From a virus, in the IMG/VR virus record IMGVR_UViG_3300035696_000014, positions 63,192-127,191 of that record: DNA of 64,000 nt; one strand, 5' to 3'. The first letter of the stretch is position 1. Each line of letters starts with the position of its first letter. This document shows positions 8,715 through 61,929 of this stretch, piece after piece. Position numbers and translations under genes: made by a program. The notes beneath the pieces were generated by a model. It did not search any database. It saw only the letters and a list, made by a program, of their open reading frames with translations, and was not told the origin of the DNA.

Positions 8715-9206
8715 TCAGAGGCTGCCCACGATGTCCCCAAAGAGGTCGGGGCGGGACTTGATCCACTCGTCGGCAGCCGCCGCGAGCTTCTCACCTTCGG
8801 GCGTCAGGTCGTAGAGCACCAGGTTTCCCTTCTTCCCGGCGACCTTGACGAAGCCACGCCGGAGGACGCTGTACCTCGCATGGACGGCGGGGTTCGGCAC
8901 CATGCGTTCAGGAGTCCGGCGGAAGGTGCCGTCAGGGTCCTGGATCATGTGGCCCTGCTCGTTGCGCTCCCAGTCGCTTCGCATGACTGGAGAGGGAGCG
9001 AAGTAGTCGTGGTTGGAGGTCGGCTTGAACTCCTCGGGAGCGTGTCCTTCGAGAGCCGAGACCTTGCGCATGATCTCTTCACGGGGCAGCGGTCGACCGG
9101 CATGAGCGATGACCCAACAGATCATGTGGGTCTTGTCGTCTGGGTGGCTGCGAGTGCCGACTGCCTCAGCCAGGAGATCACGTAGCTCGCGAAGCGTCAG
9201 TCTCAT
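8715..9206 (-). CDS. Hypothetical protein with N-terminal MRLTLRELRDLLAE motif
   Basis: ATG at 9206 lies 5 nt after TACCTA; C-terminal YDLTPEG resembles a winged-helix wing. Confidence 0.7.
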   Translation of the reverse strand: MRLTLRELRDLLAEAVGTRSHPDDKTHMICWVIAHAGRPLPREEIMRKVSALEGHAPEEFKPTSNHDYFAPSPVMRSDWERNEQGHMIQDPDGTFRRTPERMVPNPAVHARYSVLRRGFVKVAGKKGNLVLYDLTPEGEKLAAAADEWIKSRPDLFGDIVGSL

Positions 9207-9239
9207 GGTCATAGGTATCTCACGCGCACCAGAAGCAAC

Positions 9240-9271
9240 AAGCCCCGGACATCGCGAACGAGCCGGGGCTT
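9240..9271 (-). terminator. Putative intrinsic terminator after tail tube gene
   Basis: AAGCCCCGG-N14-CCGGGGCTT inverted repeat followed on the minus strand by GTTGCTTCT (weak U tract). Confidence 0.5.
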
Positions 9272-9344
9272 GAGGGCAGGAACATCGCCATCTACCGGTG
9301 ACAGGAGAAGCGGCGATGCCCGCACCGGGCGGGATTGCCCGGAA

Positions 9345-9833: not shown

Positions 9834-9879
9834 GTCTCTCTCCTGTCACCGGGTTCGATCGTAACTATCCGCTAGTCCC

Positions 9880-10200
9880 TCAGGCTGCCTTCTTCATCGC
9901 CTGCTGGGGTTGCTGGCCCTTCTTGGCCAGGCCCTTCAGCTGTTCGACGTACTTGCGAACCTCGGCAGCCTTGTTGAAGATGTCGCTGTGGATGCCCACC
10001 ACGATGGCTTTTGCGGGGCCAGCGGGAGCGAGCTCGTGGGCCTGTTCGACCTTCTTGTTGAGGTTCTGCAGGTCCATCAAGATCGCATCGAGGATCCCAT
10101 TGAAGTCGGGTTGCTTCTTGCCGAAGAGCTCCTGGAGGGCTTGCGAGTACTCCTGCTCCTCTTGGATCAGCTGCTTGAGGTCGCCGACGCGGATCTTCAT
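9880..10200 (-). CDS. Small helical protein with MKIRVGDLKQLIQEE N-terminus (candidate internal head protein)
   Basis: ORF track; shared N-terminal motif. Confidence 0.75.
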   Translation of the reverse strand: MKIRVGDLKQLIQEEQEYSQALQELFGKKQPDFNGILDAILMDLQNLNKKVEQAHELAPAGPAKAIVVGIHSDIFNKAAEVRKYVEQLKGLAKKGQQPQQAMKKAA

Positions 10201-10394
10201 CCCAGGTCTCTTTCTGCGACAGCGAAGGCGAACTCCTCGTCAATCACTGTCTGCAGCTGGTCGGTTGTCAGGCGCCCTTCGGGCAGCACCGTCCGCGGGC
10301 GGGGGACCCAATCATCAGCCGTGGGGCCCAGTTCCAGCTTGCGCCGGACTGCCTCACGGATGATGTTGCGGAGCTGCTGCTTGGACACCCTCAT
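10197..10394 (-). CDS. Small protein with MRVSKQQLRNIIRE N-terminus (candidate internal head protein)
   Basis: ORF track; ATGA coupling to the next gene; shared motif. Confidence 0.7.
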   Translation of the reverse strand: MRVSKQQLRNIIREAVRRKLELGPTADDWVPRPRTVLPEGRLTTDQLQTVIDEEFAFAVAERDLG

Positions 10395-10406
10395 GGTTCA
10401 CCCAGC

Positions 10407-13400
10407 TCACACCTGCTGCGAGATGTTGTTGGTCACCACGAAGTCGAGGGAGACGTACTCGAGCGACTTGGTGGGCTGGACGTAGATCTTGCCGCGGATG
10501 GTGTTGTTCTCGATGTCGAGCTGCGTCGTTGTCGAGGAGTCGATGACAACCTTGAAGTTCGACAGGCCTGCCTGGGCCTGGATCTTCTGCAGGACGGGGG
10601 TCACTGCGGCAGAGAAGGCTGCCAGGGTGGCATCCCTGTTCTGCTCGAACAGGATGGTATTGGCGATGTCCCGCACCTGCCGGCGGATCTCGATCAGCAG
10701 GCGGCGGACGTTGACGCGATCCAGCGCCGTTGCGGCCTGCTGCAGCGTCTTCTGTCCCCAAACCACCACACCACCCTTCGGGTTGGTGCCGGCGGTTGCG
10801 TTGCCCGGGAAGGCAACGAGCGGGTTGATGTTGGCGTCGTACAGGGTGTCCATGTCAGCCTTCGCAAGCTTGACACGGGCCTCCAGGGTGGTCTGCAAGG
10901 CGCCGCGGGTGAAGCCGGCGGGAGCGAACCACGGGTGACCGACCGCATCGTTCAGAGCCAAGGCTCCAAGGACGACGACCGACGGGGCCACGAAGAGGTT
11001 GGTCTGCGTGTTCGGATCGGGCATCAGGACGTCGGGGAAGTATGCTGCACCGAAGCTGCTGTTGACAGCACGCTCCAGGAAGCTCTGCACCGTGTAGGTC
11101 ACCGACGGCAACTGGGAGTCGTCAACCACCAGCTTGTCGTTGTTGTCGTACTGCTCGAGGTCCATCAGGTACATGCAGTCGAAACGCTGCTCACAGGTGG
11201 ACAGGCCCTGGTCAGTGATGACCGGGTGCCGGATGCCAGGCACAGCCAGCAGCTCGATGTCGACGTTGGTGACGTCGCCCATGATGCTGAGACCGACATT
11301 GTAGGCCGACACGCTGGCGCCGAGGTTGAAGCCACGGTTGCTGGCGTTCATGTCGTCTTCGACGGCGGTATTGGTGATCGCGCTCTCGTCGGGGTCGAAC
11401 AGGTTGGTGCCGTCGAAGCCGCCCTGCACCAGGAACGACCACTTCAGGAAGCGACGGTTGGACTGGATGAAGTCGCTGGGCAGCAAGCCACGGGTTGCCG
11501 TGGCATCGTTGACCGGGATGTTGCCGTTGCGGACGTACTGCGCCGAGGCCCACTGGGTCGGGTCGGCGATGCCGGCCGAGTTGGTGACGACCTGGACGTT
11601 CATCAACGTGAACGCGTTGTAATTGAAACGATCGGCGTCGATGACCGCACCGTTGACAGGCGGGGCGCCGTTGTTGTCACCCACCCGCATGTTCTGCACG
11701 TCGGTGCGGAACTCGGGCTGGTAGCCGGCGAAAGCCTGTAGCGAGTTGTTGGCCAGGGTGCTGGCATTGGGGGTCGAGGCGTTGGTGACGTGCTCGAACT
11801 GCAGGCCCCAGTACAGCAGCGGGTTGACCTGCAGCTTGGCGCCCGTGCCCTGTGTCACGTTCTGTCGCAGCGGCACCGGGGGCTCGATGATGTCCGAAGC
11901 CCAGCTGCTGCCTGAGACAGACAGCGCTGAGTACGAGCCGGAAATGATGGGATCTGAGGGCTGAACCAGGCAGCCACCCGCCGTCACCAGGTGGTGAACG
12001 CCGCGGAGGCCGACCGGGAGAGCCGTCGGATCCAGTTCCCCAGTATCAACGCTGGGATCCACTTCAATGCGGATGTAGTTGGAGGCGTTGGCGTAGTTGC
12101 CGTCGACGACCAGCTTCTGCGCGGTGGGACCACGGTCGAAGTCGAAGAAGGTGTTGACGTCACCGATCACCGCAGCGATGTACTGCGAGTCGCTCGGGTT
12201 CAGCGTCAGGCCGCGGAACTGCTCCAGGTACTGGGGCGCGGAATCGTTGTCGCCCCATGCACGGACGACGAGGTCGAAGGTTCCGTACTGGTTCGACGGG
12301 TCAGTCGACAGCGCCGGGTTCTCGATCGACAGCTTGTACATCGTCGACACGCCGGTGCCATCGTCCAAAGCGTGGACGCGGAACAGGTTGTGGACCTTGC
12401 CACCGAAGGGCTGGCTGACGACCCACGGAGACATCGCGTGCTCGAAGCGATCGCGGAAGTCCTCGTAGTCAGGGACAGTGTCGCTGCCCACATCGCGGGC
12501 CAGCGAGCTGGTCAGGATGAACGCTGCGGGTTCAGCACCCGTGTTGTAGCTCGTTGCCGCACCAGCGCCGTAGCGCGGGTTGACGAAGCCTGAACCCGTT
12601 GCGACCGCGACAGCCGGGTGGATGTCGTAGGTCATGTACAGGTAGTGACCCGCCTGGTCCAGGTTCTCGGGGTTAGTGTTCAGGACGTTCGCGTAGTAGT
12701 TGGGTGAGGTCAGGTCGAACGATGCGGTGATGACGTTCGGGAACAGCGGGCTGCCCTTGAGACCGTTCAAGAGGAGGACGAAGTCCTGCTTGGCGATCGA
12801 ACCGTCAAAGAGGACCAGGTCACCGAGGCTGGAGCCGTTTGCCCGAGCGTTAGCGAGGTCTGTTGACAGCGGCGCGATGCTGCTGGTACCGGGAACGGAC
12901 GATGACAGGGTCAGGACAACGCCCGACGCCGCCATCACGATGCCGCGGACAATCGGCACGCTGGTGCCTGCCGTCGCTGATTGCGCCTGTGCACCTGCTG
13001 CCGAGAAGTACGTTGAACCGGCCGACTCCGACATGAAGCAGCCGAGGAAGTAGGTGCGGCCGTTGGGGCCTGCGCCGCCCCCAAGAGCGTTGACCGAGTT
13101 GGCGTAGGAGTTCGGGCTCAGCTCACCGTTGTTGGTGGGATCGGGTTGATCCTCGCCGACAGTGAAGCCAGCAGCGAGGACATCGCCACCACCCGTGGTG
13201 ACGCTCTGGTTGGAGGGGGTGCCCTGCCGCGCAGTGCCCTGGCCCACGCCGAGGACACGGAGGTAGGTCAACGCTTGCGCGTTGCGGAGCCACTCCGTCA
13301 CCGCCAGGGGGCCGAACTTCTTGCCGTCGGTGAGACCGAACTTCAGATAGAAGTCATTGACGACGCCCACCGTGATGGGCACGAAGGCCGGTCCCTTCAG

Positions 13401-13511
13401 GCTGGTGCCGATGACGCCTGCGGGGGTACCGGTCGGCTGTGTTGCCAACGGCTGCGACTGATCGATCTCTGTCGCTGTGACCCCAGGTGCGCCGAACTTG
13501 AGCTGTGCCAT
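10407..13511 (-). CDS. Tail sheath protein, copy 2 (gp18-like), 1034 aa
   Basis: PGVTATEIDQS start, GPAFVP, PWFAPAGFTRG, INPL, VWGQKTL, LDRVNVRRLL. Confidence 0.93.
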   Translation of the reverse strand: MAQLKFGAPGVTATEIDQSQPLATQPTGTPAGVIGTSLKGPAFVPITVGVVNDFYLKFGLTDGKKFGPLAVTEWLRNAQALTYLRVLGVGQGTARQGTPSNQSVTTGGGDVLAAGFTVGEDQPDPTNNGELSPNSYANSVNALGGGAGPNGRTYFLGCFMSESAGSTYFSAAGAQAQSATAGTSVPIVRGIVMAASGVVLTLSSSVPGTSSIAPLSTDLANARANGSSLGDLVLFDGSIAKQDFVLLLNGLKGSPLFPNVITASFDLTSPNYYANVLNTNPENLDQAGHYLYMTYDIHPAVAVATGSGFVNPRYGAGAATSYNTGAEPAAFILTSSLARDVGSDTVPDYEDFRDRFEHAMSPWVVSQPFGGKVHNLFRVHALDDGTGVSTMYKLSIENPALSTDPSNQYGTFDLVVRAWGDNDSAPQYLEQFRGLTLNPSDSQYIAAVIGDVNTFFDFDRGPTAQKLVVDGNYANASNYIRIEVDPSVDTGELDPTALPVGLRGVHHLVTAGGCLVQPSDPIISGSYSALSVSGSSWASDIIEPPVPLRQNVTQGTGAKLQVNPLLYWGLQFEHVTNASTPNASTLANNSLQAFAGYQPEFRTDVQNMRVGDNNGAPPVNGAVIDADRFNYNAFTLMNVQVVTNSAGIADPTQWASAQYVRNGNIPVNDATATRGLLPSDFIQSNRRFLKWSFLVQGGFDGTNLFDPDESAITNTAVEDDMNASNRGFNLGASVSAYNVGLSIMGDVTNVDIELLAVPGIRHPVITDQGLSTCEQRFDCMYLMDLEQYDNNDKLVVDDSQLPSVTYTVQSFLERAVNSSFGAAYFPDVLMPDPNTQTNLFVAPSVVVLGALALNDAVGHPWFAPAGFTRGALQTTLEARVKLAKADMDTLYDANINPLVAFPGNATAGTNPKGGVVVWGQKTLQQAATALDRVNVRRLLIEIRRQVRDIANTILFEQNRDATLAAFSAAVTPVLQKIQAQAGLSNFKVVIDSSTTTQLDIENNTIRGKIYVQPTKSLEYVSLDFVVTNNISQQV

Positions 13512-13618
13512 CGCCTATTGCCTCTGCGCTCTAAGTATCGTATCGACGCGTTTGTGGGGCTTCGAAAGGAAACCGCCCAGGATTTGAGACAGGCGCCTAA
13601 GTAAGGCGCCCATCCTGA

Positions 13619-16600
13619 TCACATGAAGGTGATGCCCGAGTTGGTGATGATGAAGTCAATCGCGATGAACTCGACCACTCGGGTCGGGACCACGACGATG
13701 CGACCGTTCATCCGGTACTGATCAACGTCAGTCTGGGTGTTGTTCGTCGAGTTGCAGATGACCTGGAAGGCTTCGATGCCTGCCTGGGTCTGGATCAGGC
13801 CGAGCTGCAACACAGTCTGCGCCGTGAAGGCGTTCTGGGTTGCGGCGTCGTTCTGCTCGAACTCCAGCTGCAGAGCGATGTTGCTGACGATGCGCTTGAT
13901 CTCCAGCAGCAGGCGGCGGACGTTGACGCGGTCCAGCGCCGAGGAGGCTGCCTGGAGCGTCTTCTGTCCGAAGATGACGAAGCCCTGCCGCGGGAAAGTG
14001 GCGATCGGGTTGATGCGGCTGGTGTACAGCGTGTCGCGGTCTGCCGAGTTGAGGCGGACCCGCACGTTGGTGACGAAGTCCAGCGCCGCCCGGTTGAAGC
14101 CGGCCGGAGCGAACCACGGGTAGCCGATCTTGTCGTTGAAGCCGAGGGCACCCAGCGCCGCGATGGACGAAGGGACCTGGACGCGGCGGTTGTTGACGGT
14201 GTCCTGGATGGTGACATCCGGGAAGTAGGTGCCGATGTAGTTGTTGTCGATGGCACGGGTGTTGAGGCCGACTGCCGTCTGATCAACATCGGGACGCGTG
14301 GAGTCGTTGTCGTACAGCCGGTTGCCCAGCTCGTCGTAGTTCTCCAGGTCCATGACGTAGAAGGCCAGGCCGTAGGTCTTCACCTGGGTACCAGCGTAGT
14401 CCGTCAGGAAGGGCTCACGGATGCCGGGCAGAACCAGGATGTTGTGGTTGACCTGCAACGGGTCCGTCATCACGTTGATGGCGGTGACGTAGGAGGAGAC
14501 GGTCGAGTTCGACTGGCCGGTGCCGTTCTGGTTGGTCAGGAAGCCCGGCGGGACGTAGCCCGGGAAGGCGCCACCGGTGTCGTTGCCGAGACCGTAGCCC
14601 GGGCCCTCGAGGCCCGTCTGCTCCGGCGGCAGCGCGTTGTCGTCGAAGCTGGTCGCCTTGTCGTTCATGCGCCGAGCATCGGGGTCCAGGAAGTTGACGC
14701 CGTCCCAGCCGCCGGCCAGGAAGGTGGTGAACTTCAGGTAGGGAGCGAAGCGGTTGAACTGCTGCGGGGTGCCCTTGCCGAGCAGCGTCGCGAAGGTGAC
14801 GCGGTTGTACTGCAGCGATGGGTCGGCGTAGGTGTACGTCGCACCGTCCAGCTTGGCGTTGCGGATGTAGGCAGCCTCCTTCATCGAGGTGTCGATCGAT
14901 GAGGTCAGGCCCGACAGGCCGGTGCCGCCGAGGGTATCGAAGACGTCAACGAAGTTGTTGGAGAAGGCGACCTTCGCCAGGCTGAACTTGTTGTCGTTGA
15001 AGGTGTCTGCGTCGGAGCCCTCAACGAAGGTGTCGAGGCCCGAAGCACCCAGGAACTGGGTGTACGAGGACAGCAACGCGTTGGGCAGCGTCTCGATGTT
15101 CGGGTTGAGCGGGATGTCCAAGCGCTCGAACTGCACGCCCCAGTAGTAGGGCGGGTAGCTGATCTCGGTCGAGCCCGGCTCACCGAACCACACTGCGGGC
15201 GAGGGTCGGTTGCCCTTCGTCACCTTGGTGCGGAAGGGGACCGGCGGCAGCACCGAGGCGGTCAGCGACTGAGCGCTGCCCTTCAGGATGCCGCTGACGC
15301 GGACCAGGTTGGATGCCAGCACCGAGAAGTCATCGAGGTTGCTGTTGGTCTTCAGGACCGAAGCACCGCGGAAGCCGAAGGGCAGCGCCGTGGCGGGCAC
15401 CGTCTGGTTGTAGACGGCATCGGTGATGTTGACGCGGATGTAAGCCGACTGGTTGGCGTACTTGCCCGAGGCCACGATGCGACGCTCAGTGTTGATCGTC
15501 GCGTCGAAGTTGTAGTAGACCTTGCGGTCACCGATGACGGCACCGATGAAGTTGTCAGCTGTCGGGTCGAGGCTCAGGTTGTTGAACTGCTCCAGGACGT
15601 TCGGGTTGATGTCGGTGTCATCCCAGCTGCGGACCTGCAGCGAGAAGGTGCCGTACTGGTAGTTCTGCGTCGTCGATGCCTGCAGGTTGACGATGCTGAT
15701 CTTGTAGAGGTTGTTGGCGTACTGGCCGTCGTCCAGAGCCTCGACGTTGAAGAGGTCGTACTCCACCTTGCCGAAGGGCTGGCTGATGAAGTTCGTCGTC
15801 TTCGGGGTCTGGTACCGCGCATCGAAGGCGCCGAAGCTGGCCCGGAACGAGGTGTTGTCGAACCACGGGCTAGCAACGTAGGCAGTGTCCGGGTTGTTGG
15901 CGCTGACGTTGGCAGTGCCCGACAGGACCGCGGCGACCGTAGCAGTGGCGACCTCATCGTCGACCGCGAAGTCGGCGTAGAGCACGTGCTGGAACTCGAC
16001 GAAGTTGTCGGGGTTGGTGTTCAGCAGCTTGGCGTAGTAGTTGATGTCATCCGGGTCGAACGACGCGGTGACGATGTGGCAGCCCGGGTTGCCGTCGTCG
16101 TTGTAGAAGTCGGAACCCAGTGCCGAGGAGATGATGAGCTTGAAGTAGCCGCTCGGGCTCGTTGCCGAGCTGCCCACCATCGCGCCGTAGTCAGCCAGGC
16201 TGTTGATGAAGCCCGCCGTCGAAGAGGCGCTGGAGAAGTCCTGTGCGCCGTTGGCGACCATCAGGCGGGCGCCCGAGGCCATCAGGACCATGCCGCGGAT
16301 CAGGTTGGCGGTGCCGCCGTTGAAGCTGTCGTTGTCGGTGAAGATGGCGGGGCCGAAAGCCTCGTCAGACTGCACCGTGTGCTGTGCGGCCAGGAACTGG
16401 ACCACGCCGGTGTGGCGGCCATAGGGGTCTGCGCTCTTCGGGTGCTTGCCAGGATCTGTTGCGCTGTAGGCGAAAGCCGGAGTGCCATCGAGGTGGAAAC
16501 CAGCACCGACGGTGCGGCCCGTGTCCAGGGTGCGGTTGATGTCAGCGCCCGTGGCGTTGGCACCTGCCCCTAGGATGCGCATGAAGGTGAGCGCGCTCCT

Positions 16601-16837
16601 GTTGGCCAGGAAGTAGTAGGCCGCGTACGGGCCGAACCGGGTCGGGTCCAGGGTGCCGAAGACAGCGTTGAACTGATCGAAGTTGCCGACCGTTACGGGG
16701 ACGAAAGCAGGGCCGCGGTTTGCGGTACCGATGACCCCCGCCGGGACGCCCACAGGGTTCTGCGGCGACGGACCGGATTGGTCGATCTCCCGATCGTAAA
16801 AGTTGGGGGACAGAAAGGTCTGCAGCGTCTGCGGCAT
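13619..16837 (-). CDS. Tail sheath protein, copy 1 (gp18-like), 1072 aa
   Basis: SPNFYDREIDQS, GPAFVP, PWFAPAGFNRA, INPIATFP, IFGQKTL, LDRVNVRRLL. Confidence 0.93.
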   Translation of the reverse strand: MPQTLQTFLSPNFYDREIDQSGPSPQNPVGVPAGVIGTANRGPAFVPVTVGNFDQFNAVFGTLDPTRFGPYAAYYFLANRSALTFMRILGAGANATGADINRTLDTGRTVGAGFHLDGTPAFAYSATDPGKHPKSADPYGRHTGVVQFLAAQHTVQSDEAFGPAIFTDNDSFNGGTANLIRGMVLMASGARLMVANGAQDFSSASSTAGFINSLADYGAMVGSSATSPSGYFKLIISSALGSDFYNDDGNPGCHIVTASFDPDDINYYAKLLNTNPDNFVEFQHVLYADFAVDDEVATATVAAVLSGTANVSANNPDTAYVASPWFDNTSFRASFGAFDARYQTPKTTNFISQPFGKVEYDLFNVEALDDGQYANNLYKISIVNLQASTTQNYQYGTFSLQVRSWDDTDINPNVLEQFNNLSLDPTADNFIGAVIGDRKVYYNFDATINTERRIVASGKYANQSAYIRVNITDAVYNQTVPATALPFGFRGASVLKTNSNLDDFSVLASNLVRVSGILKGSAQSLTASVLPPVPFRTKVTKGNRPSPAVWFGEPGSTEISYPPYYWGVQFERLDIPLNPNIETLPNALLSSYTQFLGASGLDTFVEGSDADTFNDNKFSLAKVAFSNNFVDVFDTLGGTGLSGLTSSIDTSMKEAAYIRNAKLDGATYTYADPSLQYNRVTFATLLGKGTPQQFNRFAPYLKFTTFLAGGWDGVNFLDPDARRMNDKATSFDDNALPPEQTGLEGPGYGLGNDTGGAFPGYVPPGFLTNQNGTGQSNSTVSSYVTAINVMTDPLQVNHNILVLPGIREPFLTDYAGTQVKTYGLAFYVMDLENYDELGNRLYDNDSTRPDVDQTAVGLNTRAIDNNYIGTYFPDVTIQDTVNNRRVQVPSSIAALGALGFNDKIGYPWFAPAGFNRAALDFVTNVRVRLNSADRDTLYTSRINPIATFPRQGFVIFGQKTLQAASSALDRVNVRRLLLEIKRIVSNIALQLEFEQNDAATQNAFTAQTVLQLGLIQTQAGIEAFQVICNSTNNTQTDVDQYRMNGRIVVVPTRVVEFIAIDFIITNSGITFM

Positions 16838-20208: not shown

Positions 20209-20237
20209 TAACTATGGAGAGGGGATCAGCCTAGTTA
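20209..20237. promoter_or_regulatory. Back-to-back putative late promoter motifs (TAGTTA on each strand)
   Basis: TAGTTA on the minus strand at 20209-20214 before the neck gene, and on the plus strand at 20232-20237, 7 nt before ATG 20245. Confidence 0.6.
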
Positions 20238-23219: not shown

Positions 23220-23233
23220 CGGCCTTAACTATC

Positions 23234-31031: not shown

Positions 31032-31032
31032 C

Positions 31033-33395: not shown

Positions 33396-33674
33396 TCAGA
33401 CCCCCTGTGCCAGGCGTCGGACCATCTCTCGCAGCTCGCCCAGTGTCATGCGAATCCGACTTTCGCCCAATTCGGCTCTCGGGGCCTTGTCGTAGACGGG
33501 ACCCTTCATCGTAGTCTGATCGTCGTCAGTGATCAGTTGTTCTCCCTTGTGGTCTTCGTCGGACGCGCCGGCCACTTTCATCATCCCGCTGCGAGCCTCA
33601 GGCGGCTGGAATGCACCCCCATCAAACTTATCAGCTTCCGCTGTCAGCCCCTTTCGGGTTTTTCTGGCCGTCAT
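33396..33674 (-). CDS. Hypothetical protein, 92 aa, with C-terminal IRMTLGELREMVRR motif
   Basis: ORF track; GAGGTG SD; TACTTA at 33716-33721. Confidence 0.65.
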   Translation of the reverse strand: MTARKTRKGLTAEADKFDGGAFQPPEARSGMMKVAGASDEDHKGEQLITDDDQTTMKGPVYDKAPRAELGESRIRMTLGELREMVRRLAQGV

Positions 33675-39547: not shown

Positions 39548-40174
39548 TCAGTTCTTCCGCAGGTCCTTTGCAACGATCGTCAGGATGGCCTCAAGCGCCT
39601 TGAGGTCGTTGGAGGCGTGATACGCCAGGCCCGCTGCCTTCTTCAACATGTTCCGTGCCGTCCTGACCGAGGTCCGATCGCCCACTTGGCCCAGCACCTT
39701 GGGCATGTCACCCAGCAGCTCTTCACACTTCAGGACGTTCTGCGCGAAGGCCTTGAGGTCAGGCTTCTTCGCCGGATCAGCGAAAGGGTCGGGCTCTACT
39801 GAGCCAGCCTCCCTGATCATCTTCCGGAGCTGACCCACTGTCACCCGTACCGTTTCCATCTTGCGACGAGTCGGTCGGTCACCGCGTTCATCGGGCGGGC
39901 CCAGGGCTTCTGCGGGGTCTGGGTCCCAAGGCTCGTTGGCGTGCTTCTTGGCCATGTCCTGGACGTACTTGTTCCACGCGTCGATCTCTTCTTTGGGAGG
40001 CTCGAAGTTGGGCAAGTCCGTGGCGATGTAGGTCTCGCCTCCCTCGGGTGGGGAGTAGATCGGCTCGTCAGGCAGGGGCTTCTTGCCCCACGCCCGGGCG
40101 TCTCCTTGGGCACCCGCCACACCCAGCTTCATCTCCCGTAGGATCCTGCGTAGCTGTCCGACGGTGATCCGCAT
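39548..40174 (-). CDS. Protein with two copies of the R(I/V)TVGQLR(R/K)(I/M)(L/I)RE motif (candidate internal head protein)
   Basis: Directly downstream of the capsid gene; ATG 40174 lies 5 nt after TACCTA. Confidence 0.75.
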   Translation of the reverse strand: MRITVGQLRRILREMKLGVAGAQGDARAWGKKPLPDEPIYSPPEGGETYIATDLPNFEPPKEEIDAWNKYVQDMAKKHANEPWDPDPAEALGPPDERGDRPTRRKMETVRVTVGQLRKMIREAGSVEPDPFADPAKKPDLKAFAQNVLKCEELLGDMPKVLGQVGDRTSVRTARNMLKKAAGLAYHASNDLKALEAILTIVAKDLRKN

Positions 40175-40263
40175 GGTCATAGGTATGGCTCCCGTATGGC
40201 TGTGTTGGCCCACACTCAGGGGCCGGTGAATTGTCTGGGGGCGGCTCCAGAGCCCTTAAACAG

Positions 40264-40317: not shown

Positions 40318-42240
40318 TCAGATGATGTTGAGGTCCATGACCGTGACGGTGCCGTAGAAGTCGCTGCGGACGACCTTCTTGCCGTACCGGGTCATCACGC
40401 CCTTACGGGGTGTGAAGTCTTCCGGTGCGAAGATCGTCGGGGTGACGATCAGGGGCACGTAGGGGCTGTACACGTAGCCGGTCTCGAGGTAGCTGCCGCC
40501 CTTGTAGCCGACGAGGATCCGGTTCCGGGGGAAGTACGGGTCCTTGTAGACCGTGAAGCGGTTGCTCAGGGTACCGATCGCCTCTGCACCGATGGTGAAG
40601 GGCGAGCCGACCTGGCCCTCGCCGTCGATCGAGAACTTCGGCTTGTAGAGCACGGAGGCCTCGAGGATGGTGGCGACGTCCGGGCTGGTGACCATGAAGT
40701 TGGCCGAGCCGCGGAGGGTCTTGCGGTGGATCGTGTTGGCGACGTCGATGATGGTCTCGACCAGGGTCTCGTACCACTCACGGACGGTGCCGGTGAACTG
40801 CGGACCGATGCTCAGCGACGTGTTGAGCGTCACCGGCTGGCCAGTCAGCTTGTTGACGAACTTGCCGGGAGCGCGGCTCCAGTACATGTTCGCACCGTTG
40901 GCGTTCGTGACCAGGTCGTTCAGGATCTCGCGGTCGATCTCCAGGGCGATCTGCTCCGACAGGATGCTCGTCAGCTCGACCTCGGCGTCCATCGAGTGGT
41001 ACGCGTTGAGGTCCTGTGCGAGCTCGGGCGACCAGCGAGCACGGAGCTTGCGGGTCGTTGCCGTGATCGAGATGGACTCGATCTTGATGTCGATCTCGGG
41101 GATCGCCGGGGTCGGGTTGACGTTGAAGTCCGACTCGAAGGACGGAATCGTCAGCGTTGCACCCGTCTGGGACGAGTCGATCTCGAAGGTGTCGGCGATG
41201 GCCATCGACATGAACATGCCGGCGCCTGCCGTGGGAGCCGAGGCGGACGGGGTCACCTTGAGGACCAGCTGGACGTGCGTGCCGTTCAGCGGTGCCGGGG
41301 TGAAGGAGCCGTTCGTGCCGGTGCCCGGGACGAAGTTGCCACGCTTGTTGAGGCGGCGGAGGTTGTAGACTCCGTTGCCGCTCTGGTAGTTCTGGCCCCA
41401 GACCACCGCGCCGTTCGTCGAGAGGAAGGAGAACAGAGCGATCTGCTCGACAGCGAGGAAGTCGCCGTTCGGGATCGCAGCCTGGATGTCGGAGACCGCC
41501 AGGTGCATGAACTGGATCCACTCGAGACCCTGCTGCAGGTCCGTCTCCAGCTGCGGGTCGAAGTTCAGCAGGCGACCGTTGGTGCCCGAGAAGTCCGAGT
41601 CAGCCTCGACGAATGCGCCGGGGATGAAGCCGCCGTTCGGGCCGTTGAAGGCACCGACACCGGCGTTGCCGAGGGAGCTCGACACCGACCCCGAGGCGTG
41701 GACCTTGGTGTAGCCGATGTTGACGAGGTCGTAGAAACCACCCGTCGCGAGCGATCCTGACTGGATGCCCTTGCCCGTCGGGTTGTTGTAGATCGACTGA
41801 CCCTGACCGTAGGTTGCCTCGGTCGTACCGCCGCCGTCGTTGAGCTGCAGGCCGGACTCACCACCGACGTTGCTGCCGTAGGTGTAGTCCAGGTAGAAGA
41901 TCAGGCCGGAGGGCAGAGACATCGGCTGGATGGAGACCAGCTCGTTCGCGACCAGGCCACCGAAGACTCGGCGGACGATCGGGAACGCGATGTTCGTGAA
42001 GCCCTGGATCTGACCAGAGGTGGAAACGTTGGCGCCGCCGGTGGACAGCGAGTTGCCGACCTCCTTCAGGACCTGAGCTGCCTGGTTCTCCAGGAGCTGT
42101 GCCATCGTCTCGCGCTTGTGGCCATCGAGGCCGCGAAGCAGGCCGGTGCGGCTCCACTTCTCGACCAGGCGGGCACGCTCGGCGCCGACGTGGCGCTCGC
42201 GGATACCTGCCGCCAGCTGTTCCATTGTGAAGAACTTCAT
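40318..42240 (-). CDS. Major capsid protein (T4 gp23-like), 640 aa
   Basis: FPIVRRVF, VSIQPMSLPSGLIFYL, TRKLRARWSPELAQDL, EIDREI, YSPYVPL, GVMTRYG. Confidence 0.96.
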   Translation of the reverse strand: MKFFTMEQLAAGIRERHVGAERARLVEKWSRTGLLRGLDGHKRETMAQLLENQAAQVLKEVGNSLSTGGANVSTSGQIQGFTNIAFPIVRRVFGGLVANELVSIQPMSLPSGLIFYLDYTYGSNVGGESGLQLNDGGGTTEATYGQGQSIYNNPTGKGIQSGSLATGGFYDLVNIGYTKVHASGSVSSSLGNAGVGAFNGPNGGFIPGAFVEADSDFSGTNGRLLNFDPQLETDLQQGLEWIQFMHLAVSDIQAAIPNGDFLAVEQIALFSFLSTNGAVVWGQNYQSGNGVYNLRRLNKRGNFVPGTGTNGSFTPAPLNGTHVQLVLKVTPSASAPTAGAGMFMSMAIADTFEIDSSQTGATLTIPSFESDFNVNPTPAIPEIDIKIESISITATTRKLRARWSPELAQDLNAYHSMDAEVELTSILSEQIALEIDREILNDLVTNANGANMYWSRAPGKFVNKLTGQPVTLNTSLSIGPQFTGTVREWYETLVETIIDVANTIHRKTLRGSANFMVTSPDVATILEASVLYKPKFSIDGEGQVGSPFTIGAEAIGTLSNRFTVYKDPYFPRNRILVGYKGGSYLETGYVYSPYVPLIVTPTIFAPEDFTPRKGVMTRYGKKVVRSDFYGTVTVMDLNII

Positions 42241-44433: not shown

Positions 44434-44492
44434 GTCTTCTCCAGGAACCTGAGTCTTAACTATCCGTCACCCACCCAAGGTGAGGAACGGCC

Positions 44493-45053: not shown

Positions 45054-45392
45054 TCAGATCTTGTTGACCAAGAACGCAGCAGCGCGCTTCTTGGCTTCCT
45101 GGACCCGAGCGAGGCGCCGGGTGAGGCGGATCTCCTCGACCTTGAGTGCCTTGAGGTAGTCGACGTGCTTGTCGAAGTTCTCGCTCATGGACTTGTCACC
45201 GGTGGCAGCCTTCTGCCAGTCGACGTGCTTCTCGTGAGCCTTGTCGGTCCCGTACTCGTCGGCATCGACTTCTTCTGTGTCCTTCTCACGCTTCTCGACT
45301 GCCTCTGCGTCGCCGAAGCCCTTCTTGACTTCGACTTCGATGAGGCGCCTGAGCATCTTGGGCGTCAGTTGGACTGGCTTGTTCGTCTTCAT
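45054..45392 (-). CDS. Small head-module protein with VQLTPKMLRRLIE motif, 112 aa
   Basis: GAGGA SD; TATTTA at 45423-45428. Confidence 0.75.
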   Translation of the reverse strand: MKTNKPVQLTPKMLRRLIEVEVKKGFGDAEAVEKREKDTEEVDADEYGTDKAHEKHVDWQKAATGDKSMSENFDKHVDYLKALKVEEIRLTRRLARVQEAKKRAAAFLVNKI

Positions 45393-45443: not shown

Positions 45444-45947
45444 TTACGCCGGCTTCTTGTCCGCGAAGGCCAGGTCAGCCCACCTGGATGCAGTTTCCTC
45501 TCCAAAGACCTCTTCTGGCCGTCCGTTGATCTGCTCGACCTGTGGGATGCCCGGGCGTGAACCCGAGGACGCTCCCTCTTCGAGGGCCGCGGATCCCAGC
45601 TTCGAATCGCTCGACAGCTTCTGTAGGGTCGTCGCCGCGGTGTCAGCCAGGATCGCTTGCATGATCGGGTTGCCGCCGGCGTTGGCCCGGATCTGCTCCT
45701 TCAACGCTGGGTTCTTGTGGATGGGAGTGTCCAGGTTGGGGTCAAACTCTGGACGAGTGCGTCCGTTGCCGTTCAACCGGAGCTTGCCGTTGTTGGCCTT
45801 GCCTTCACGCACTGAGCCCTGGATTGGCATGCGACCAGGCGGGAGGGGGCGGTGTGCCGCTGCTTGGACGTTGCCCAAGCCCTCGCTGAGGATCTCCACG
45901 AGCAGGTCCTTGACCAGCGCTTTCAGTTCTCCACGAGTCAGCGGCAT
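45444..45947 (-). CDS. Head-module protein with MPLTRGELKALVK...ILSE N-terminus, 167 aa
   Basis: ORF track; C-terminal RWADLAF resembles the scaffold end RWAQLAG. Confidence 0.75.
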   Translation of the reverse strand: MPLTRGELKALVKDLLVEILSEGLGNVQAAAHRPLPPGRMPIQGSVREGKANNGKLRLNGNGRTRPEFDPNLDTPIHKNPALKEQIRANAGGNPIMQAILADTAATTLQKLSSDSKLGSAALEEGASSGSRPGIPQVEQINGRPEEVFGEETASRWADLAFADKKPA

Positions 45948-46446: not shown

Positions 46447-46449
46447 GGA

Positions 46450-50524: not shown

Positions 50525-50587
50525 CTCGTTCACCCCTCCATTCCGTCGGGGCCTTCCTTACGGTACATCACCGAGAACGGTGTGCCG

Positions 50588-50899
50588 TCACTCGTCGCCC
50601 TTCTTGGCAGAGAGGGACACCTTCTTCGGCTCCTTCTTCACCCTCGGGACGTAGGAGGCCGGGGTCGACAGCATGTTCTCGAGGACCCTCTCGAGCTCAC
50701 CGAGGTGAGGGGTCGTGGCGTTGATCGCAGCGGGAGGCGCCTTCTCCTTGAAGGCCTCGACTGCAGCCAAGAGCTTGCTGGCAACGCCGACGATGCTGTT
50801 GATCGTCTTGTGGTCGACCTGCTCGTTGACCTTGTCGATCTCTTCGGCGATGATCTGCTTCAGCCTGTCCAGGCTCACCGTGGGGGATTTTGCCGTCAT
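50588..50899 (-). CDS. Small helical protein with VSLDRLKQIIAEE motif, 103 aa
   Basis: Between terminase and portal; TACCTA at 50922-50927. Confidence 0.75.
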   Translation of the reverse strand: MTAKSPTVSLDRLKQIIAEEIDKVNEQVDHKTINSIVGVASKLLAAVEAFKEKAPPAAINATTPHLGELERVLENMLSTPASYVPRVKKEPKKVSLSAKKGDE

Positions 50900-50940
50900 C
50901 GTGTCACCCTTCTGCACTGGATAGGTATTCGCCCTCTCGC

Positions 50941-52995: not shown

Positions 52996-53298
52996 CTAGT
53001 CGACGTCAAAAGTGATCGCCATCGGTGGCCTCTGCGCCAGAGCCTGGCGGACTGCTCCGGGATCGGGTCGCCAGCCCTCTTTCCACATCGCGAGCCTGGG
53101 CTGGGCCCAGATGAGCGCACAGCGGTCACAACAGCCCACCGTGCGCCAAGATGCCTCATCGTCCTTCGTGCGCATCAGGCACGTGCAGACGGGACACGCG
53201 AGCGGGACGGGCGGTTCGGCGTCAGTCGGGACGATGACCGAGAAGCCCTCGGGTTGTTCTTCGATCAGGCGGTCGCGGAGGTACGGTCTCCAGGCCAT
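52996..53298 (-). CDS. Small Cys-rich (zinc-finger-like) protein, 100 aa
   Basis: CPVC...CCDRC. Confidence 0.65.
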   Translation of the reverse strand: MAWRPYLRDRLIEEQPEGFSVIVPTDAEPPVPLACPVCTCLMRTKDDEASWRTVGCCDRCALIWAQPRLAMWKEGWRPDPGAVRQALAQRPPMAITFDVD

Positions 53299-55889: not shown

Positions 55890-56533
55890 GCGATCACCTC
55901 TGCTTCGGGGTACTTCGCCAGGTCAGCTTCATCGATCTCGATCTCAACGTCACGTCCAGCCAGGAACTGCATCTTATGGATGTCCCCCAGCAGAACGAAG
56001 TCCCAACCCCTGAAGAACTCCACGGTGATGCCCTCTTCAACCAACCAGTCCGTCTCGGTCCGAGCTCCCCACACCGGACCGTGGTAACAAGCGATGTTGA
56101 CCTTGCCCGGGATGGGCTTGACGTTGTCCCAGTTCTTCTCGTCGAACAGGCTGAAAATGCCCCAGGTGTACCCCGGCGCGAACTCGTAGGTGCCGCTCTC
56201 CTTGTAGACGTGGATGCGCGGGTTCTTCAGCGCCCGGATGATGGGTGTCACCGCGTCCATCCTACCCAGGTTGACGAGGTTGCCGTCGTGGTTGCCCAAC
56301 GTCAGATGCACTTCCGCGGCATCGGCCATCAATTCAAGCCACCAGACCATCAGGTCGATGTACTCGGGTGACAGGCCACTGGTCTTGGTGTGGAAGATGT
56401 CGCCACCGACGAAGATGTGGGTGACCCCTTGCTCCTTGCACTGGCGTGCGAAAGCAACGAACACCTCGCGGTACTCGTCGTGCCTCGACAATCCCCGCCA
56501 GTGAACGTCAGCAATGTGAGCAATCTTCAGCAT
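55886..56533 (-). CDS. SbcD/Mre11-like (gp47-like) metallophosphoesterase, N-terminal part, 215 aa
   Basis: ADVH, GGDIFH, GNHD, YHG and LGDIH motifs; ends before the YPGS motif. Confidence 0.9.
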   Translation of the reverse strand: MLKIAHIADVHWRGLSRHDEYREVFVAFARQCKEQGVTHIFVGGDIFHTKTSGLSPEYIDLMVWWLELMADAAEVHLTLGNHDGNLVNLGRMDAVTPIIRALKNPRIHVYKESGTYEFAPGYTWGIFSLFDEKNWDNVKPIPGKVNIACYHGPVWGARTETDWLVEEGITVEFFRGWDFVLLGDIHKMQFLAGRDVEIEIDEADLAKYPEAEVIA

Positions 56534-56548
56534 TCGGGCTACCTCTGA

Positions 56549-58637: not shown

Positions 58638-61486
58638 CAGAAGTCGTACTTCACCTTGAACATGATGCGGTCACCAGTGCGCTTCTGAATCGGCTGCGCC
58701 AGCTGGGTCTTCATCACCACGTTGAGGTCGCTGTCATGGAAGTTGATGTTGGTGATGTAAACGAAGGAGTCCTCCGGATCGTTCGGGTAGCCCGTTGGCG
58801 GCACTGCCAGGTAGGCTGGGTTGCTCGACGAGTTGAGCTGGTTGTTGGGGGCGATGGCATCAATCTTCAGGACGTGGACGTTCTGAGTGCCTTGCAAGTA
58901 CATGCTGTACTGGTTGGCACCGTAGAAGTAGAGGTGCGGGCTCTTGATGATGACCTCGCCCTCGTCGTAGTAGACGTTGCCAACACTGTTCCAAGTCGAC
59001 TGGCTTGTCAAGCAGTCAGCACGGTAGACGGTGCCGTTGCCGTCATCAGCTAGGGTGATGTGGATGGGTCCGACGAAGCTCGCAGTGTTGGACAACACCT
59101 GGGATGCCACCAGGCTCGAGAACATCAGGTCGGGTTCGGTGAACTGCAACGAAGTCGGGTTGATCCTCATGCCGTAGAACAGGTTGCTGATGTCAAAGAC
59201 CACCACCTCGTTGCTGGAAGGGTCTTGCGTTGCTTGGAACACGTCCAACGGGCACCCGGCTTCGACATCTGAGCCTGAGGACACCGTGTTGAGGTAGTTC
59301 ATCAGAGCCGGGCCCGCAGGAGCGAAGGGAGTCGTTGTCGTGGCTCCGAGCTGGATGTTGGAGAAGGCACTGGTCTGTGAAGCGGGTTGGCTGCCGTCGT
59401 CGAACGAACCTGGGCCGAAGAGCAGGGTGCTGGTCATCACCATGTTGTCCAGGTTGATGAAGGACAGCTCTGTGACGCCCAAGTCAGTGACTGCCGTCGT
59501 CAAGCTCTCGGACACCAACAACTGGAAGCTGGGGACGAACAGGCCGTCGTCGCAGGGCAGGATCGTCAGGTTACGTTTGACGACGTAGGGCTGTCCATAC
59601 AAGAACTCATTGCAGATCTCCGCATCAGTTGATGTCTGGATCGCCACCCCTGTCAGGTGGTACAGCATCGGAAAGTTCTCACTGCCCAGGTCCTTGACGA
59701 AGTTGTCAAGGTTGATGTAGTGACCAGCGACGCCGAAGGACAGTGCTACGCTGAAGGGCTGCGTCGTTGCTCCGTTGACCTCCTCGAAGGGTGTCACCAG
59801 GATGCCACCGTGGTCATTCACGAACTGCTTGTAGGGAGACTGGTTCGTGAAGAAGGGAGGCACGTAGAAGGCGAAAGTGTTGTCCAGGAAGGTGGGCCCG
59901 TTGCTGGCGCTGGTCGCGATGTCGAGGTCCGACATGTAGCACCGTCGGATAGCGATGTCATGCAGCTCGGCATTCAACGGGTGGGCGAAGGAGTAGCTGT
60001 TGGGGGTCTCGATGCCGTAGTCCTGCCATAGCACGTTGAGGCCATCACGCGTCGCCGGGTCCAGGGCAAAGAACATGGCCTGAGCGTTGTCGCTGTTGTT
60101 GGGCCCGTCGTAGTAGTTGCCGATGCAGAGGACCGAGGGCTCATCCTGAGTGACGTCTGGGATCTTGCCGTACGAGTGGCTACCCATCACCACCAGGTCT
60201 GCCAACGACGGAGTGATCTGCTGGTACGGGACCTGGAAGGTTCCGACATCAACGCCGTCCACGTTGAAGGTGCCGATGCCGTTGTTGGTGTAGACGGTGC
60301 CCCACCTGACCACGACGTGGTGCCAGTTGTTGAGCCACAGGACGTTGTCGTCCGACATGAAGCATAGCGTCGTCGGTGGGATTGCCGCCCCGGAGCTGGC
60401 TCCGAAGGTGCCCGGTGCGATGTACCATTCACCCGACGAGGACAGAAACAGCGAGCTGGGTGGGATGTCCGCAGATGATGACAGCTGGAGCTGCAGGCGG
60501 AAGCCCACGGGCCTGCCGTTGGTGTCCTTGCTCGACCCGGTGACCAACGACAGGGCGAAGGTCGACGACAGGTGCATGATGGTACCCGCCCTGAACTCGC
60601 CCCAAGGCTCGTCGGTGGTGTACCGCGGGTTGATGTGGAAGTCGAAGCTGAAGGAACCCGAGGGGGTGTAGGTGCCGCTTGGGAAGTTCTCGTGGTAGAC
60701 CAAGCCCCCATCACCGCCATCGATGTTCGGGTACATGATGACGCTGTCTTCGGGCACCATCGAAGCGGTGAAGAAGTTCAGCGTGTTGTAGTTGGTGTAG
60801 GCGTAGTGGGCCGTCGGGTACGAGGTGCGGTAGTAGGTGTTGAGCTGGTCCTTGATCACCTGCTTACGCAGTGTGTTGCTGTTGAAGACGGGAGGCGGGC
60901 TGAACCGCTGCACGTCTAGCACCTCCTGGAGCCGCGTTGCTTGCGGCTGTGCCGCGCAGCCGATCAGGTACTGGTCAAGGATGGCCGGAAAGTTCGCGGC
61001 TAGCTGCTGGTTGCTGAACTGGAAAGTTCCCAACGCCTGGTAGATGCCAGTTCCAGGTGACACCATGGTCCCGGACACCAAGTAGGCAACGCCGCTCGAG
61101 TACGACAAGACGGGCCACTCTAGGTCGTATGACACCGGCTGTTCTGAAGGATCCGTGGAGGTCGGGTAGAAGACACCGACCAGGACGCCGTTATCGAAGG
61201 TGCAAGTGTACTCACCCGTCGCCGTCGTGTAGCCCGAGGTGTTGCGGATGTTCTTGCCGACGATCTGGACCTGCCTCAGCAGCGACGACAGGTCGGCATC
61301 GTCCATGGTCGATTCGACGAACGAAGAGTCGGGCTGGATGTCCTTCTGCGTCTGCGAATGGCGTGCATAGAGGTAGACCGAGCCGGTCGCGCCCTGCAGA
61401 GACGAAGACGTGTACGTCCTGATCGGATTGGTGACGACGGTGAACGTCTCGTAGTCTGATGGGTCCAGGGGGTAGATCGACGGCAT
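58637..61486 (-). CDS. Large virion structural protein with LamG/concanavalin-like domain, 949 aa
   Basis: NNWHHVVVRW...FNVDG; C-terminal GNVYYDEG...NSSSNP...YITNINFHD...FKVKYDF. Confidence 0.75.
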   Translation of the reverse strand: MPSIYPLDPSDYETFTVVTNPIRTYTSSSLQGATGSVYLYARHSQTQKDIQPDSSFVESTMDDADLSSLLRQVQIVGKNIRNTSGYTTATGEYTCTFDNGVLVGVFYPTSTDPSEQPVSYDLEWPVLSYSSGVAYLVSGTMVSPGTGIYQALGTFQFSNQQLAANFPAILDQYLIGCAAQPQATRLQEVLDVQRFSPPPVFNSNTLRKQVIKDQLNTYYRTSYPTAHYAYTNYNTLNFFTASMVPEDSVIMYPNIDGGDGGLVYHENFPSGTYTPSGSFSFDFHINPRYTTDEPWGEFRAGTIMHLSSTFALSLVTGSSKDTNGRPVGFRLQLQLSSSADIPPSSLFLSSSGEWYIAPGTFGASSGAAIPPTTLCFMSDDNVLWLNNWHHVVVRWGTVYTNNGIGTFNVDGVDVGTFQVPYQQITPSLADLVVMGSHSYGKIPDVTQDEPSVLCIGNYYDGPNNSDNAQAMFFALDPATRDGLNVLWQDYGIETPNSYSFAHPLNAELHDIAIRRCYMSDLDIATSASNGPTFLDNTFAFYVPPFFTNQSPYKQFVNDHGGILVTPFEEVNGATTQPFSVALSFGVAGHYINLDNFVKDLGSENFPMLYHLTGVAIQTSTDAEICNEFLYGQPYVVKRNLTILPCDDGLFVPSFQLLVSESLTTAVTDLGVTELSFINLDNMVMTSTLLFGPGSFDDGSQPASQTSAFSNIQLGATTTTPFAPAGPALMNYLNTVSSGSDVEAGCPLDVFQATQDPSSNEVVVFDISNLFYGMRINPTSLQFTEPDLMFSSLVASQVLSNTASFVGPIHITLADDGNGTVYRADCLTSQSTWNSVGNVYYDEGEVIIKSPHLYFYGANQYSMYLQGTQNVHVLKIDAIAPNNQLNSSSNPAYLAVPPTGYPNDPEDSFVYITNINFHDSDLNVVMKTQLAQPIQKRTGDRIMFKVKYDF

Positions 61487-61533
61487 TCAGGCTTCCCCAG
61501 CGTAACTATACCCCGCACCTGGGGGCCAGGCGG

Positions 61534-61929
61534 TCAACGGTACGGGTGATCGGTGTACCGCGACAGAGGGAGATACTCGACCTTGAATCCAATGCCTTCG
61601 AGCTTGGAAGCCACCATCTGCGCCTGGAACCTGGCTTCTCGGTCGTTGTCCGCGTCCAAGGGAACAGCAAAAGCGGAGTCATGCTGGTCGACGGTCTCCT
61701 TTTCTGCGCGTGTCAGGTTCTGCATCATGGGACCACCGATCTGGGCATCCTGGAACTGTCGCAGCCTCATTGAGGCCCGCTCGTTCTCGAATGTCTTCCA
61801 GTCCCAAGCGACAGCAACGACGTATTCACCACGGCCCCGGTGGAATGGGCCATACACGTGCATCGGGAGCTCCAGGGGTTTCAGCTCCTCCCCCAGCAAC
61901 CGTCTGATCTCTCCCAGGCGCACCCGCAT
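61534..61929 (-). CDS. Hypothetical protein with MRVRLGEIRRLLGEE N-terminus, 131 aa
   Basis: TACTTA 5 nt before the ATG; shared motif. Confidence 0.7.
   Translation of the reverse strand: MRVRLGEIRRLLGEELKPLELPMHVYGPFHRGRGEYVVAVAWDWKTFENERASMRLRQFQDAQIGGPMMQNLTRAEKETVDQHDSAFAVPLDADNDREARFQAQMVASKLEGIGFKVEYLPLSRYTDHPYR

Follow-up and report, generated by a model that had tools for sequence, protein, structure and literature searches.

The internal proteins of bacteriophage T4 are diverse, their capsid-targeting sequence (CTS) alone being conserved, and they include counter-defence factors (PMC3012670). Within the CTS, residues 4 and 7 are described as serving targeting and residues 8 and 10 as serving processing; the protease gp21 cuts after the motif L/I-X-E, and an Asp at P1 stops cutting with targeting unaffected (PMC9026906). 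In the T4 record the relevant N-termini read MKTYQEFIAE for IPII and IPIII, MAKINELLRE for gp24, MELITELFDE for Alt, MLKEQLIAE for gp22 and MNEPQLLIE for gp21. Here we describe a peptide tag of 15 residues, with the consensus M-[KR]-[ILV]-[TS]-x-x-Q-L-[RK]-x-[IL]-I-x-E-E, that opens many otherwise unrelated proteins encoded in a 64,000-nucleotide stretch of viral DNA (the window: bases 63192-127191 of the 127,191-base contig IMGVR_UViG_3300035696_000014). A sequence-only reading of the window had proposed that the tag targets its carriers to the capsid and releases them there by proteolysis. On balance we think that it is probably a longer, lineage-specific capsid-targeting propeptide that works as the T4 CTS does.

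A short tag at the start of unrelated proteins

The tag is concentrated at N-termini. A loose regular expression, [LIV][RKQ].[LIVM][LIVM].[ED], finds 10 matches in the first 26 residues of the 117 called open reading frames (ORFs; 3,042 positions), against a mean of 0.65 and a maximum of 4 over 300 shuffles; beyond the first 26 residues there are 16 matches in 32,857 positions, where 7.0 are expected. The sequence-only reading had proposed, as a check, that this and related genomes be scanned with a profile of the motif, and the scan bears it out. The profile has 16 columns, and its training set was 112 distinct tags found in 80 related portal loci of IMG/VR (portal identity 60-93%, G+C 36-65%), with this genome excluded. 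At 14 bits or more it returns 8 N-terminal hits in this genome, where shuffling yields 0.02 and never more than 1 in 300 rounds, and 2 non-N-terminal hits against 0.3 expected. The gene calls are a crude greedy set based on G+C at third codon positions, and the regular expression that chose the training tags derives from the list in the sequence-only reading; independent support comes from the other half of the contig, from two further genomes (G008 and G011) and from the collection scans described below. In the 80 loci, 172 of 212 matches to the regular expression lie within 25 residues of the first start codon of their ORF.

The copies in the window are as follows (scores in bits, from the relatives' profile).

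9165..9206, minus strand: MRLTLRELRDLLAE, opens a 165-residue ORFan (gene 8715-9206) without Pfam or PHROG family; score 12.1
10156..10200, minus strand: MKIRVGDLKQLIQEE, opens a 106-residue ORFan between the sheath and tube genes; score 23.4
10353..10394, minus strand: MRVSKQQLRNIIRE, opens a 65-residue ORFan; score 23.5
10233..10274, minus strand: RLTTDQLQTVIDEE, a second, internal tag in the same 65-residue protein; score 16.6
40133..40174, minus strand: MRITVGQLRRILRE, opens an ORFan of ∼208 residues adjoining the capsid gene; score 16.3
39809..39850, minus strand: VRVTVGQLRKMIRE, a second, internal copy in the same ∼208-residue protein; score 19.1
45336..45374, minus strand: VQLTPKMLRRLIE, residues 7-19 of a 112-residue acidic head-module protein (family 3; 55 members in relatives)
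45906..45947, minus strand: MPLTRGELKALVKD, in a 167-residue head-module protein (family 2; 56 members in relatives)
50840..50878, minus strand: VSLDRLKQIIAEE, residues 8-20 of a 103-residue protein just upstream of the portal gene (family 1; 62 members)
61885..61929, minus strand: MRVRLGEIRRLLGEE, opens a 131-residue ORFan; matches the regular expression, below 12 bits with the profile
33414..33455, minus strand: IRMTLGELREMVRR, a C-terminal tag-like helix in a doubtful 92-residue ORF; without the terminal Glu

Eight peptides at or near N-termini and two internal or C-terminal ones had been quoted in the sequence-only reading, and all translate exactly as quoted, on the minus strand; a further peptide that it placed in the scaffold is present at 43303-43371. 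Its list of about ten was incomplete: it lacked the second copy in the gene at 10394 and at least six tagged genes in the other half of the contig, which that reading had not covered (genome coordinates 745-2172, 11877-12407, 28189-28674, 30964-31185, 46157-46423 and 46420-46803). Two of its members also fall short as tags, the start at 61929 by its low profile score and the copy at 33414-33455 by its missing Glu. The ORF holding the latter has a weak coding signal, a homologous ORF in the related genome G006 ends in a similar helix, and we regard this copy as tag-like only. Counting ORFs of at least 40 residues with a hit of at least 14 bits in their first 40 residues, this contig has 11 tagged ORFs, G006 has 15 and G008 has 23, with some doubt about a few.

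That the sequences after the tag are mostly unrelated, as had been claimed, is borne out by clustering. Together, the 80 loci and three genomes contain 238 tagged ORFs, which form 44 clusters by post-tag sequence, or 42 families once two junk ORFs are dropped. The three largest, with 62, 56 and 55 members, hold conserved proteins whose genes lie between those of the portal and the capsid: a protein of ∼100 residues just upstream of the portal, one of 140-170 residues and an acidic one of 81-112 residues. Beyond these, one cluster has 15 members and the others 1-3, and few are common to G006 and G008.

With one representative taken from each family, a Met stands directly before or at the tag start in 31 of 42. 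It is followed by K/R (38), I/L/V (35), T/S (35), two variable positions and then Q/E; the middle of the tag holds L (40), R/K (39) and one variable position; and its end consists of I/L at P4 (33), I/V at P3 (40), a variable P2 and E at P1 (38), with E, A or V as the next residue. The families were chosen by a profile that rewards the motif residues, so these counts lean towards the motif. Within the three large families P1 is E in 43/45, 40/44 and 42/43 distinct sequences while P2 varies freely. Given the frequencies at P3 and P1, the tag end, (I/L)-(I/V)-x-E, fits the gp21 motif.

The signal is one of protein and not of DNA. Within every one of the three large families all six Leu codons are found at the invariant Leu (column 6), and codon choice for the Ile, Lys and Glu of the tag is free as well, across relatives of 36-65% G+C; the tag is therefore under protein-level selection. 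A reading of the tag as a nucleotide-level signal (a translation-start context or a recombination site), or as chance, gains something from the identical 15-nucleotide promoter-to-ATG stretch in two tagged genes. It can be almost wholly discounted: the codon usage refutes it, and chance is further contradicted by the 8 hits against 0.02 in shuffles and by a control with the pattern reversed, which scores 0 against 5-11 (below).

The sequence-only reading had pictured a strand-plus-helix module, of which the models support the helix only: as predicted by AlphaFold2 for two tagged families, the tag is helical (residues 9-21 in one, 10-23 in the other), a loop of low confidence comes after it, and no strand appears. 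For family 1 (45 rows, mean predicted local distance difference test score (pLDDT) 74) the tag helix at residues 10-23 is followed by a helical hairpin; Foldseek of this model against BFVD found nothing at E <= 0.001. Among 51 tagged proteins scanned (E <= 0.01) there were 5 weak Pfam hits and 8 PHROG hits, only 2 of them named, and no match to a curated model covers the tag. A cluster look-up of six NCBI-sourced homologues gave no informative names. Five tag peptides did not occur in the literature searched, and none of the papers listed there on capsid targeting and T4-like or jumbo phages is about this tag by title and abstract, which is weak evidence for absence from print.

The phage lineage and the spread of the tag

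The window has a G+C content of ∼62% and carries nearly all of its genes on the minus strand. Related contigs of ∼130-140 kb have a CheckV completeness of 38%, and complete relatives with terminal repeats measure 369,475 bp (G006) and 297,894 bp (G008). From these figures we take the contig to be a fragment holding about a third of its genome, and the phage to be a jumbo T4-like phage of roughly 350 kb. Capsid and portal matches revealed no close isolate among 50,697 isolate records, the best being Microcystis phage Mel-JY01, Flavobacterium phage immuto and Rhodothermus phage RM378 at 35-45% identity; none of the cultured phages in that collection belongs to the lineage.

IMG/VR was also scanned with a degenerate DNA pattern that encodes M-K-x-T-x-x-[QE]-L-x-x-I-I-x-E-E, which occurs there in at least 144 stretches. 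Among the matches listed, 111 fall in 80 loci, and many of them form arrays of 2-4 adjacent small genes that are near-identical over their first 15 residues and then diverge. The 97 complete tagged ORFs among the same matches yield 95 bodies in 83 BLASTP clusters; the bodies sampled have a median length of 105 residues and a median isoelectric point (pI) of 4.9. The tag is portable across unrelated bodies.

One carrier from the other half of the contig, a 475-residue protein (genome 745-2172, minus strand; L120:748-2172), belongs to a family of 184 proteins at E <= 0.001. Among the best 120 of the 184, 79 score at least 12 bits N-terminally and most of the others are visibly tagged. The family has a C-terminal beta domain; its AlphaFold2 model (60 rows) has a mean pLDDT of 69 and a predicted template modelling score of 0.31, and Foldseek against the PDB found nothing at E <= 0.001. 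Family 4 (15 members, ∼330 residues) was considered as a primase and this was ruled out, since it matches no Pfam or PHROG family; a homologue is absent from this contig (G000) and from G006.

Pfam PF03420, the family of the S77 prohead protease, is present in 8 of 10 large tag-bearing contigs, the estimated completeness of the other two being 42% and 62%. Among the 8 is G011, a contig of 190,528 bp that is rated complete, so the tag is not limited to jumbo genomes. In G011 the profile reaches 14 bits or more at 21 places, of which 16 are N-terminal, with about ten in one array across the contig ends. Both ends (1-∼400 and ∼188,900-189,300; L272, L281) have the same start of a tagged gene with the same sequence before it: the array spans the terminal repeat, and some tags are thus counted twice. 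A looser pattern gives 6 matches in this genome, 5 in G006, 11 in G008 and 8 in G011, and its reversed form none in all four.

In 185,579 prokaryote species (one genome each, 596 Gb) the degenerate pattern hits 20 stretches on 10 contigs. The pattern has a chance probability of ∼3e-14 per position, or ∼0.04 chance hits in 596 Gb (at equal base frequencies; higher in A+T-rich DNA). The hits are confined to contigs of metagenome-assembled genomes (MAGs), several with multiple hits, and S77 is encoded in 3 of 5 such MAGs tested; no isolate bacterial genome among the 185,579 has the pattern. The MAG contigs look like T4-type phage contigs binned with cells. Two of them (loci L288-L303), NHDW01000006.1 (305,838 bp; at least 9 tag matches) and PBIO01000025.1 (101,404 bp; 9 across overlapping loci), come from MAGs labelled Methylococcaceae and Halobacteriovorax, which also encode an S77 protease. 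As judged from these scans, the tag occurs only in T4-type phage DNA with an S77 protease.

The head module and the promoter-like element

Pfam and PHROGs name a T4-type morphogenetic gene set in the window, including a gp19-type tube gene and a baseplate hub gene. Its head genes and the tag-like segments within them are as follows.

40321-42240, minus strand: Gp23 major capsid protein (PF07068, E 5e-78)
42193..42240, minus strand: weaker tag-like start of the gp23-type capsid protein, MKFFTMEQLAAGIRER
42295-44433, minus strand: scaffold-like protein of 713 residues
43303..43371, minus strand: invariant central motif of the scaffold-like protein, DTIVEIDEKMLRREIARMRSLRE, and the scaffold peptide of the sequence-only reading, VEIDEKMLRREI
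46867-47523, minus strand: S77 (T4 gp21-type) prohead protease (Pfam PF03420, E 3.4e-23; PHROG head maturation protease)
48383-50533, minus strand: T4-type portal (Pfam PF07230, E 1.1e-73)
50944-52584: T4-type large terminase (Pfam/PHROGs)

A T4 gp21-type setting had been assumed for the tag, and it is found: the S77 protease is present, and 38 of 42 families have a tag that closes with (I/V)-x-E. The protease aligns with the T4 gp21 structure 5JBL (E 2e-14) and keeps the His, Ser and Asp positions, which we take to be the catalytic triad of T4 gp21; from this alignment it appears catalytically intact. The head module also contains a peptide deformylase gene (45955-46446), which immediately precedes two tagged genes.

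The capsid protein begins with MK-x-F-[TS]-[LMI]-[ED]-Q-L-A-x-G-I-[RK]-[ED] in all 33 distinct relatives shown. This start scores 4.2 bits here, 1.3-11.2 (about 7) in most relatives and 19.2 in one (L064); the chance of 7 bits or more is ∼0.003-0.005. BLASTP aligns capsid residues 22-124 with T4 gp23 residues 6-134 and sets the T4 site LTE65 opposite VLKE59, which places the tag-like start at the front of the region that T4 removes.

When 32 homologues of the scaffold-like protein are aligned, no other internal block is as well conserved as the central motif. It is an invariant helix, TIVEIDExMLRREIARMRxLRE, that includes the scaffold peptide of the sequence-only reading, and it scores 11.2 bits by a first, over-fitted matrix made from the eight N-terminal peptides of that reading; it is tag-like, not a tag. 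The protein itself opens with M-[ST]-K-Q-L-[YF]-E-E-A, comparable to T4 gp22. A complex prediction for the whole scaffold-like protein (32 rows) with family 3 (42 rows) scored 0.00/0.00 in one run without controls, and weighs neither for nor against binding.

Several tagged genes are preceded by a short promoter-like element.

9212..9218, minus strand: ATACCTA, 5 nucleotides before the ATG of the tagged gene at 9206, a leaderless spacing
40180..40186, minus strand: ATACCTA, 5 nucleotides before the ATG of the tagged gene at 40174
50922..50928, minus strand: ATACCTA, 22 nucleotides before the ATG of the tagged gene upstream of the portal
61935..61941, minus strand: ATACTTA, 5 nucleotides before the ATG of the tagged gene at 61929

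Within 45 nucleotides upstream, ATA[CG][CT]TA precedes 6 of 15 tagged genes, 6 of 22 virion-module genes and 2 of 83 others, where ∼0.46 occurrences are expected over all 120 upstream windows. Further minus-strand sites at 9862-9868, 13532-13538, 20209-20215, 23226-23232, 44457-44463 and 61503-61509 lie 6-28 nucleotides ahead of the tube, sheath, adaptor, 225-residue, scaffold and 949-residue genes. The element is probably, to judge from its placement, the late promoter of this lineage in place of that of T4, and its distance of 5-7 nucleotides from the ATG at several genes implies leaderless or near-leaderless mRNAs. G011 has a similar CTATTTA ahead of its scaffold gene, a p137 homologue and three tagged genes (by eye). 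The sequence-only reading had noted a leaderless promoter at three tagged genes, and at three (9206, 40174 and 61929) the element does end 5 nucleotides before the ATG. Its further idea, that promoter and tag form a cassette, is not supported: because the element also fronts the tube, sheath, adaptor and scaffold genes it is of a general late type, and the DNA upstream of the tagged arrays of relatives is not conserved. The identical 15-nucleotide promoter-to-ATG stretch is found in two tagged genes only (9206 and 40174).

Other genes of the window deserve mention. Two adjoining tail-sheath paralogues (10410-13511 and 13622-16837; 1,034 and 1,072 residues) match sheath families only in their C-terminal ∼300 residues. 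A NifU-like Fe-S scaffold gene lies at 35135-35569. At 53268-55889 and 55889-56533 a short SbcD-like gene (215 residues) overlaps an SbcC-like ORF that opens with ∼100 residues beyond its SbcC match; the pair could be a split, fusion or frameshift of an Mre11-type nuclease. A GIY-YIG/NUMOD3 homing endonuclease gene (63413-63949) stands at the window end.

Readings of the tag and comparison with known systems

If the tag is a capsid-targeting propeptide, it would act as a short N-terminal amphipathic helix that gives its carrier affinity for the prohead scaffolding core. The carrier would be enclosed as the gp23-type shell forms, the S77 protease would cut after the conserved Glu of the (I/L)-I-x-E end and free the cargo in the head, and the cargo might later be ejected with the DNA.

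A number of observations weigh against this reading. The relatives' profile fails on the T4 CTS (IPI 2.4, IPII -0.3 and IPIII 3.9 bits), and the best N-terminal score of any T4 propeptide is 10.0 bits against a threshold of 12. Internal and C-terminal copies of the tag exist (further internal ones occur in a 308-residue protein of G008 and a 383-residue protein of G011), and were the tag a cleavage site these copies would split their proteins in two. The bodies are mostly acidic (66 of 95 below pI 6), and the abundant internal proteins of T4 are basic. The tandem arrays, made up of small ORFs, look like blocks of early host-takeover genes; no promoter was found for the arrays of the relatives, and the DNA ahead of these shows no conservation. 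Family 2 stays conserved beyond the Glu (KECLVEILSEG), and its helix may be part of the mature protein. The 475-residue family has a sigma-70 region-4-like helix-turn-helix (weak Pfam E of 0.002-0.008 and a conserved alignment block), and a polynucleotide kinase/phosphatase-like domain occurs in one of the tagged proteins of G008. Neither is of a kind that one would readily expect in a capsid, although T4 itself packages an enzyme, Alt. Finally, the system is absent from cultured phages in the 50,697 isolate records, where the nearest capsid has at most 45% identity. The looser pattern finds 2 matches in immuto, 1 in Mel-JY01 and 0 in RM378 and T4, clear tags were not seen in the head module of Mel-JY01, and tblastn of one tagged ORF against isolate phages gave nothing at E <= 10, a search in which the low-complexity filter may have masked the tag.

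Some of these points would suit a helix that has nothing to do with the capsid: an uncleaved hub-binding or hetero-oligomerisation element by which small effectors dock on a common host or phage partner. Small acidic bodies in arrays of early appearance, a sigma region-4 or DNA-binding-like tagged family, a profile unlike the T4 CTS and the large number of tagged ORFs (11-23 per genome) are what one might expect of it. We nonetheless hold it unlikely: a weaker copy of the tag stands at the start of the capsid propeptide, the genes of three conserved tagged proteins stand between those of the portal and the capsid, tagged and virion genes have in common a promoter element that precedes few other genes, and the near-invariant Glu, which suits a gp21-type site, would be needless for docking. 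More improbable is a targeting or structural element of the prohead core that stays uncleaved and uses its Glu-rich end for helix packing. The conservation of family 2 through and beyond the Glu and the invariant tag-like helix inside the scaffold speak for it, and in T4 targeting and processing are described as separable (PMC9026906); P1 is nevertheless kept as Glu in 38 of 42 families while P2 varies, and the protease appears to be intact.

The extreme N-terminal position, the Met-basic-hydrophobic start and the many small carriers of unknown function also recall a signal for degradation or timing, which a cellular protease or chaperone would recognise and which would limit the lifetimes of its carriers. 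Such a signal would make little sense on the major capsid protein and on conserved head-module proteins, and the tag is confined to phages with the S77 protease; we consider this very improbable.

A capsid-targeting propeptide, should the tag be one, would have several implications. One short motif would predict the head-packed, injected proteins of uncultured large phages, and the unrelated bodies, at least 83 in 80 loci, would form a large, unexplored pool of candidate early-acting effectors, given that the packaged proteins of T4 include counter-defence factors. The tag would offer a second, longer and more conserved means of packaging foreign proteins in T4-type capsids, and the T4 mechanism would be old and widespread rather than peculiar to T-even phages. 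A bolder proposal, which we put forward as possible though on the doubtful side, is that the tag is the universal packaging address of a large, wholly uncultured T4-like branch (∼150 to ∼370 kb) and marks a hyperdiverse arsenal co-injected with the DNA: hundreds of small, mostly acidic families in fast-turning arrays, together with the sigma-region-4-like protein. Were this so, the ejected proteome, with its candidate counter-defence and host-takeover effectors, could be read from sequence, and new cargo would be recruited by gaining a 15-residue tag behind a late promoter.

Short peptides that load unrelated cargo are known outside phages. The encapsulation peptides of bacterial microcompartment enzymes and the cargo-loading peptides of encapsulins are short terminal peptides, joined by a linker, that bring unrelated cargo into a shell, and the microcompartment peptide is an amphipathic helix. 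They bind cellular shell proteins and are not removed by a maturation protease, and those of encapsulins are C-terminal.

Closer to the present case, phiKZ-like giant phages (phiKZ, 201phi2-1 and SPN3US) likewise have many inner-head proteins that are cut after Glu by a gp21-related protease; their propeptides are thought to target, and paralogues can have an identical N-terminus (PMC5694885, PMC9026906). In the accounts given there, these propeptides are unlike the tag in being mostly longer than 100 residues and in lacking one common short motif. Their cleavage motif is A/S-X-E, with a small P3 where the tag has I/L, and the phages are of a different lineage.

The T4 CTS remains the nearest parallel. 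The tag is longer (∼15 residues against 10) and far more strongly conserved, it is carried by 11-23 ORFs per genome against a handful, often in tandem arrays, its bodies are mostly acidic and a weak copy stands on the major capsid protein. Because the relatives' profile does not score the T4 peptides, the likeness is, as far as sequence comparison reaches, one of pattern and not of detectable homology. Tagged proteins are nearly all ORFans, as the internal proteins of T4 are diverse (PMC3012670). From the sequences, the tag appears to share four of the five CTS features that we examined, sequence similarity being the exception. Both are N-terminal, start with Met-Lys and space their hydrophobic residues at i, i+3 and i+4 with Glu at i+6 (in the tag L, I/L at +3, I at +4 and E at +6); both end in the gp21 motif L/I-X-E, in a phage that has a gp21-family protease; and both stand on diverse, unrelated proteins whose genes are scattered.

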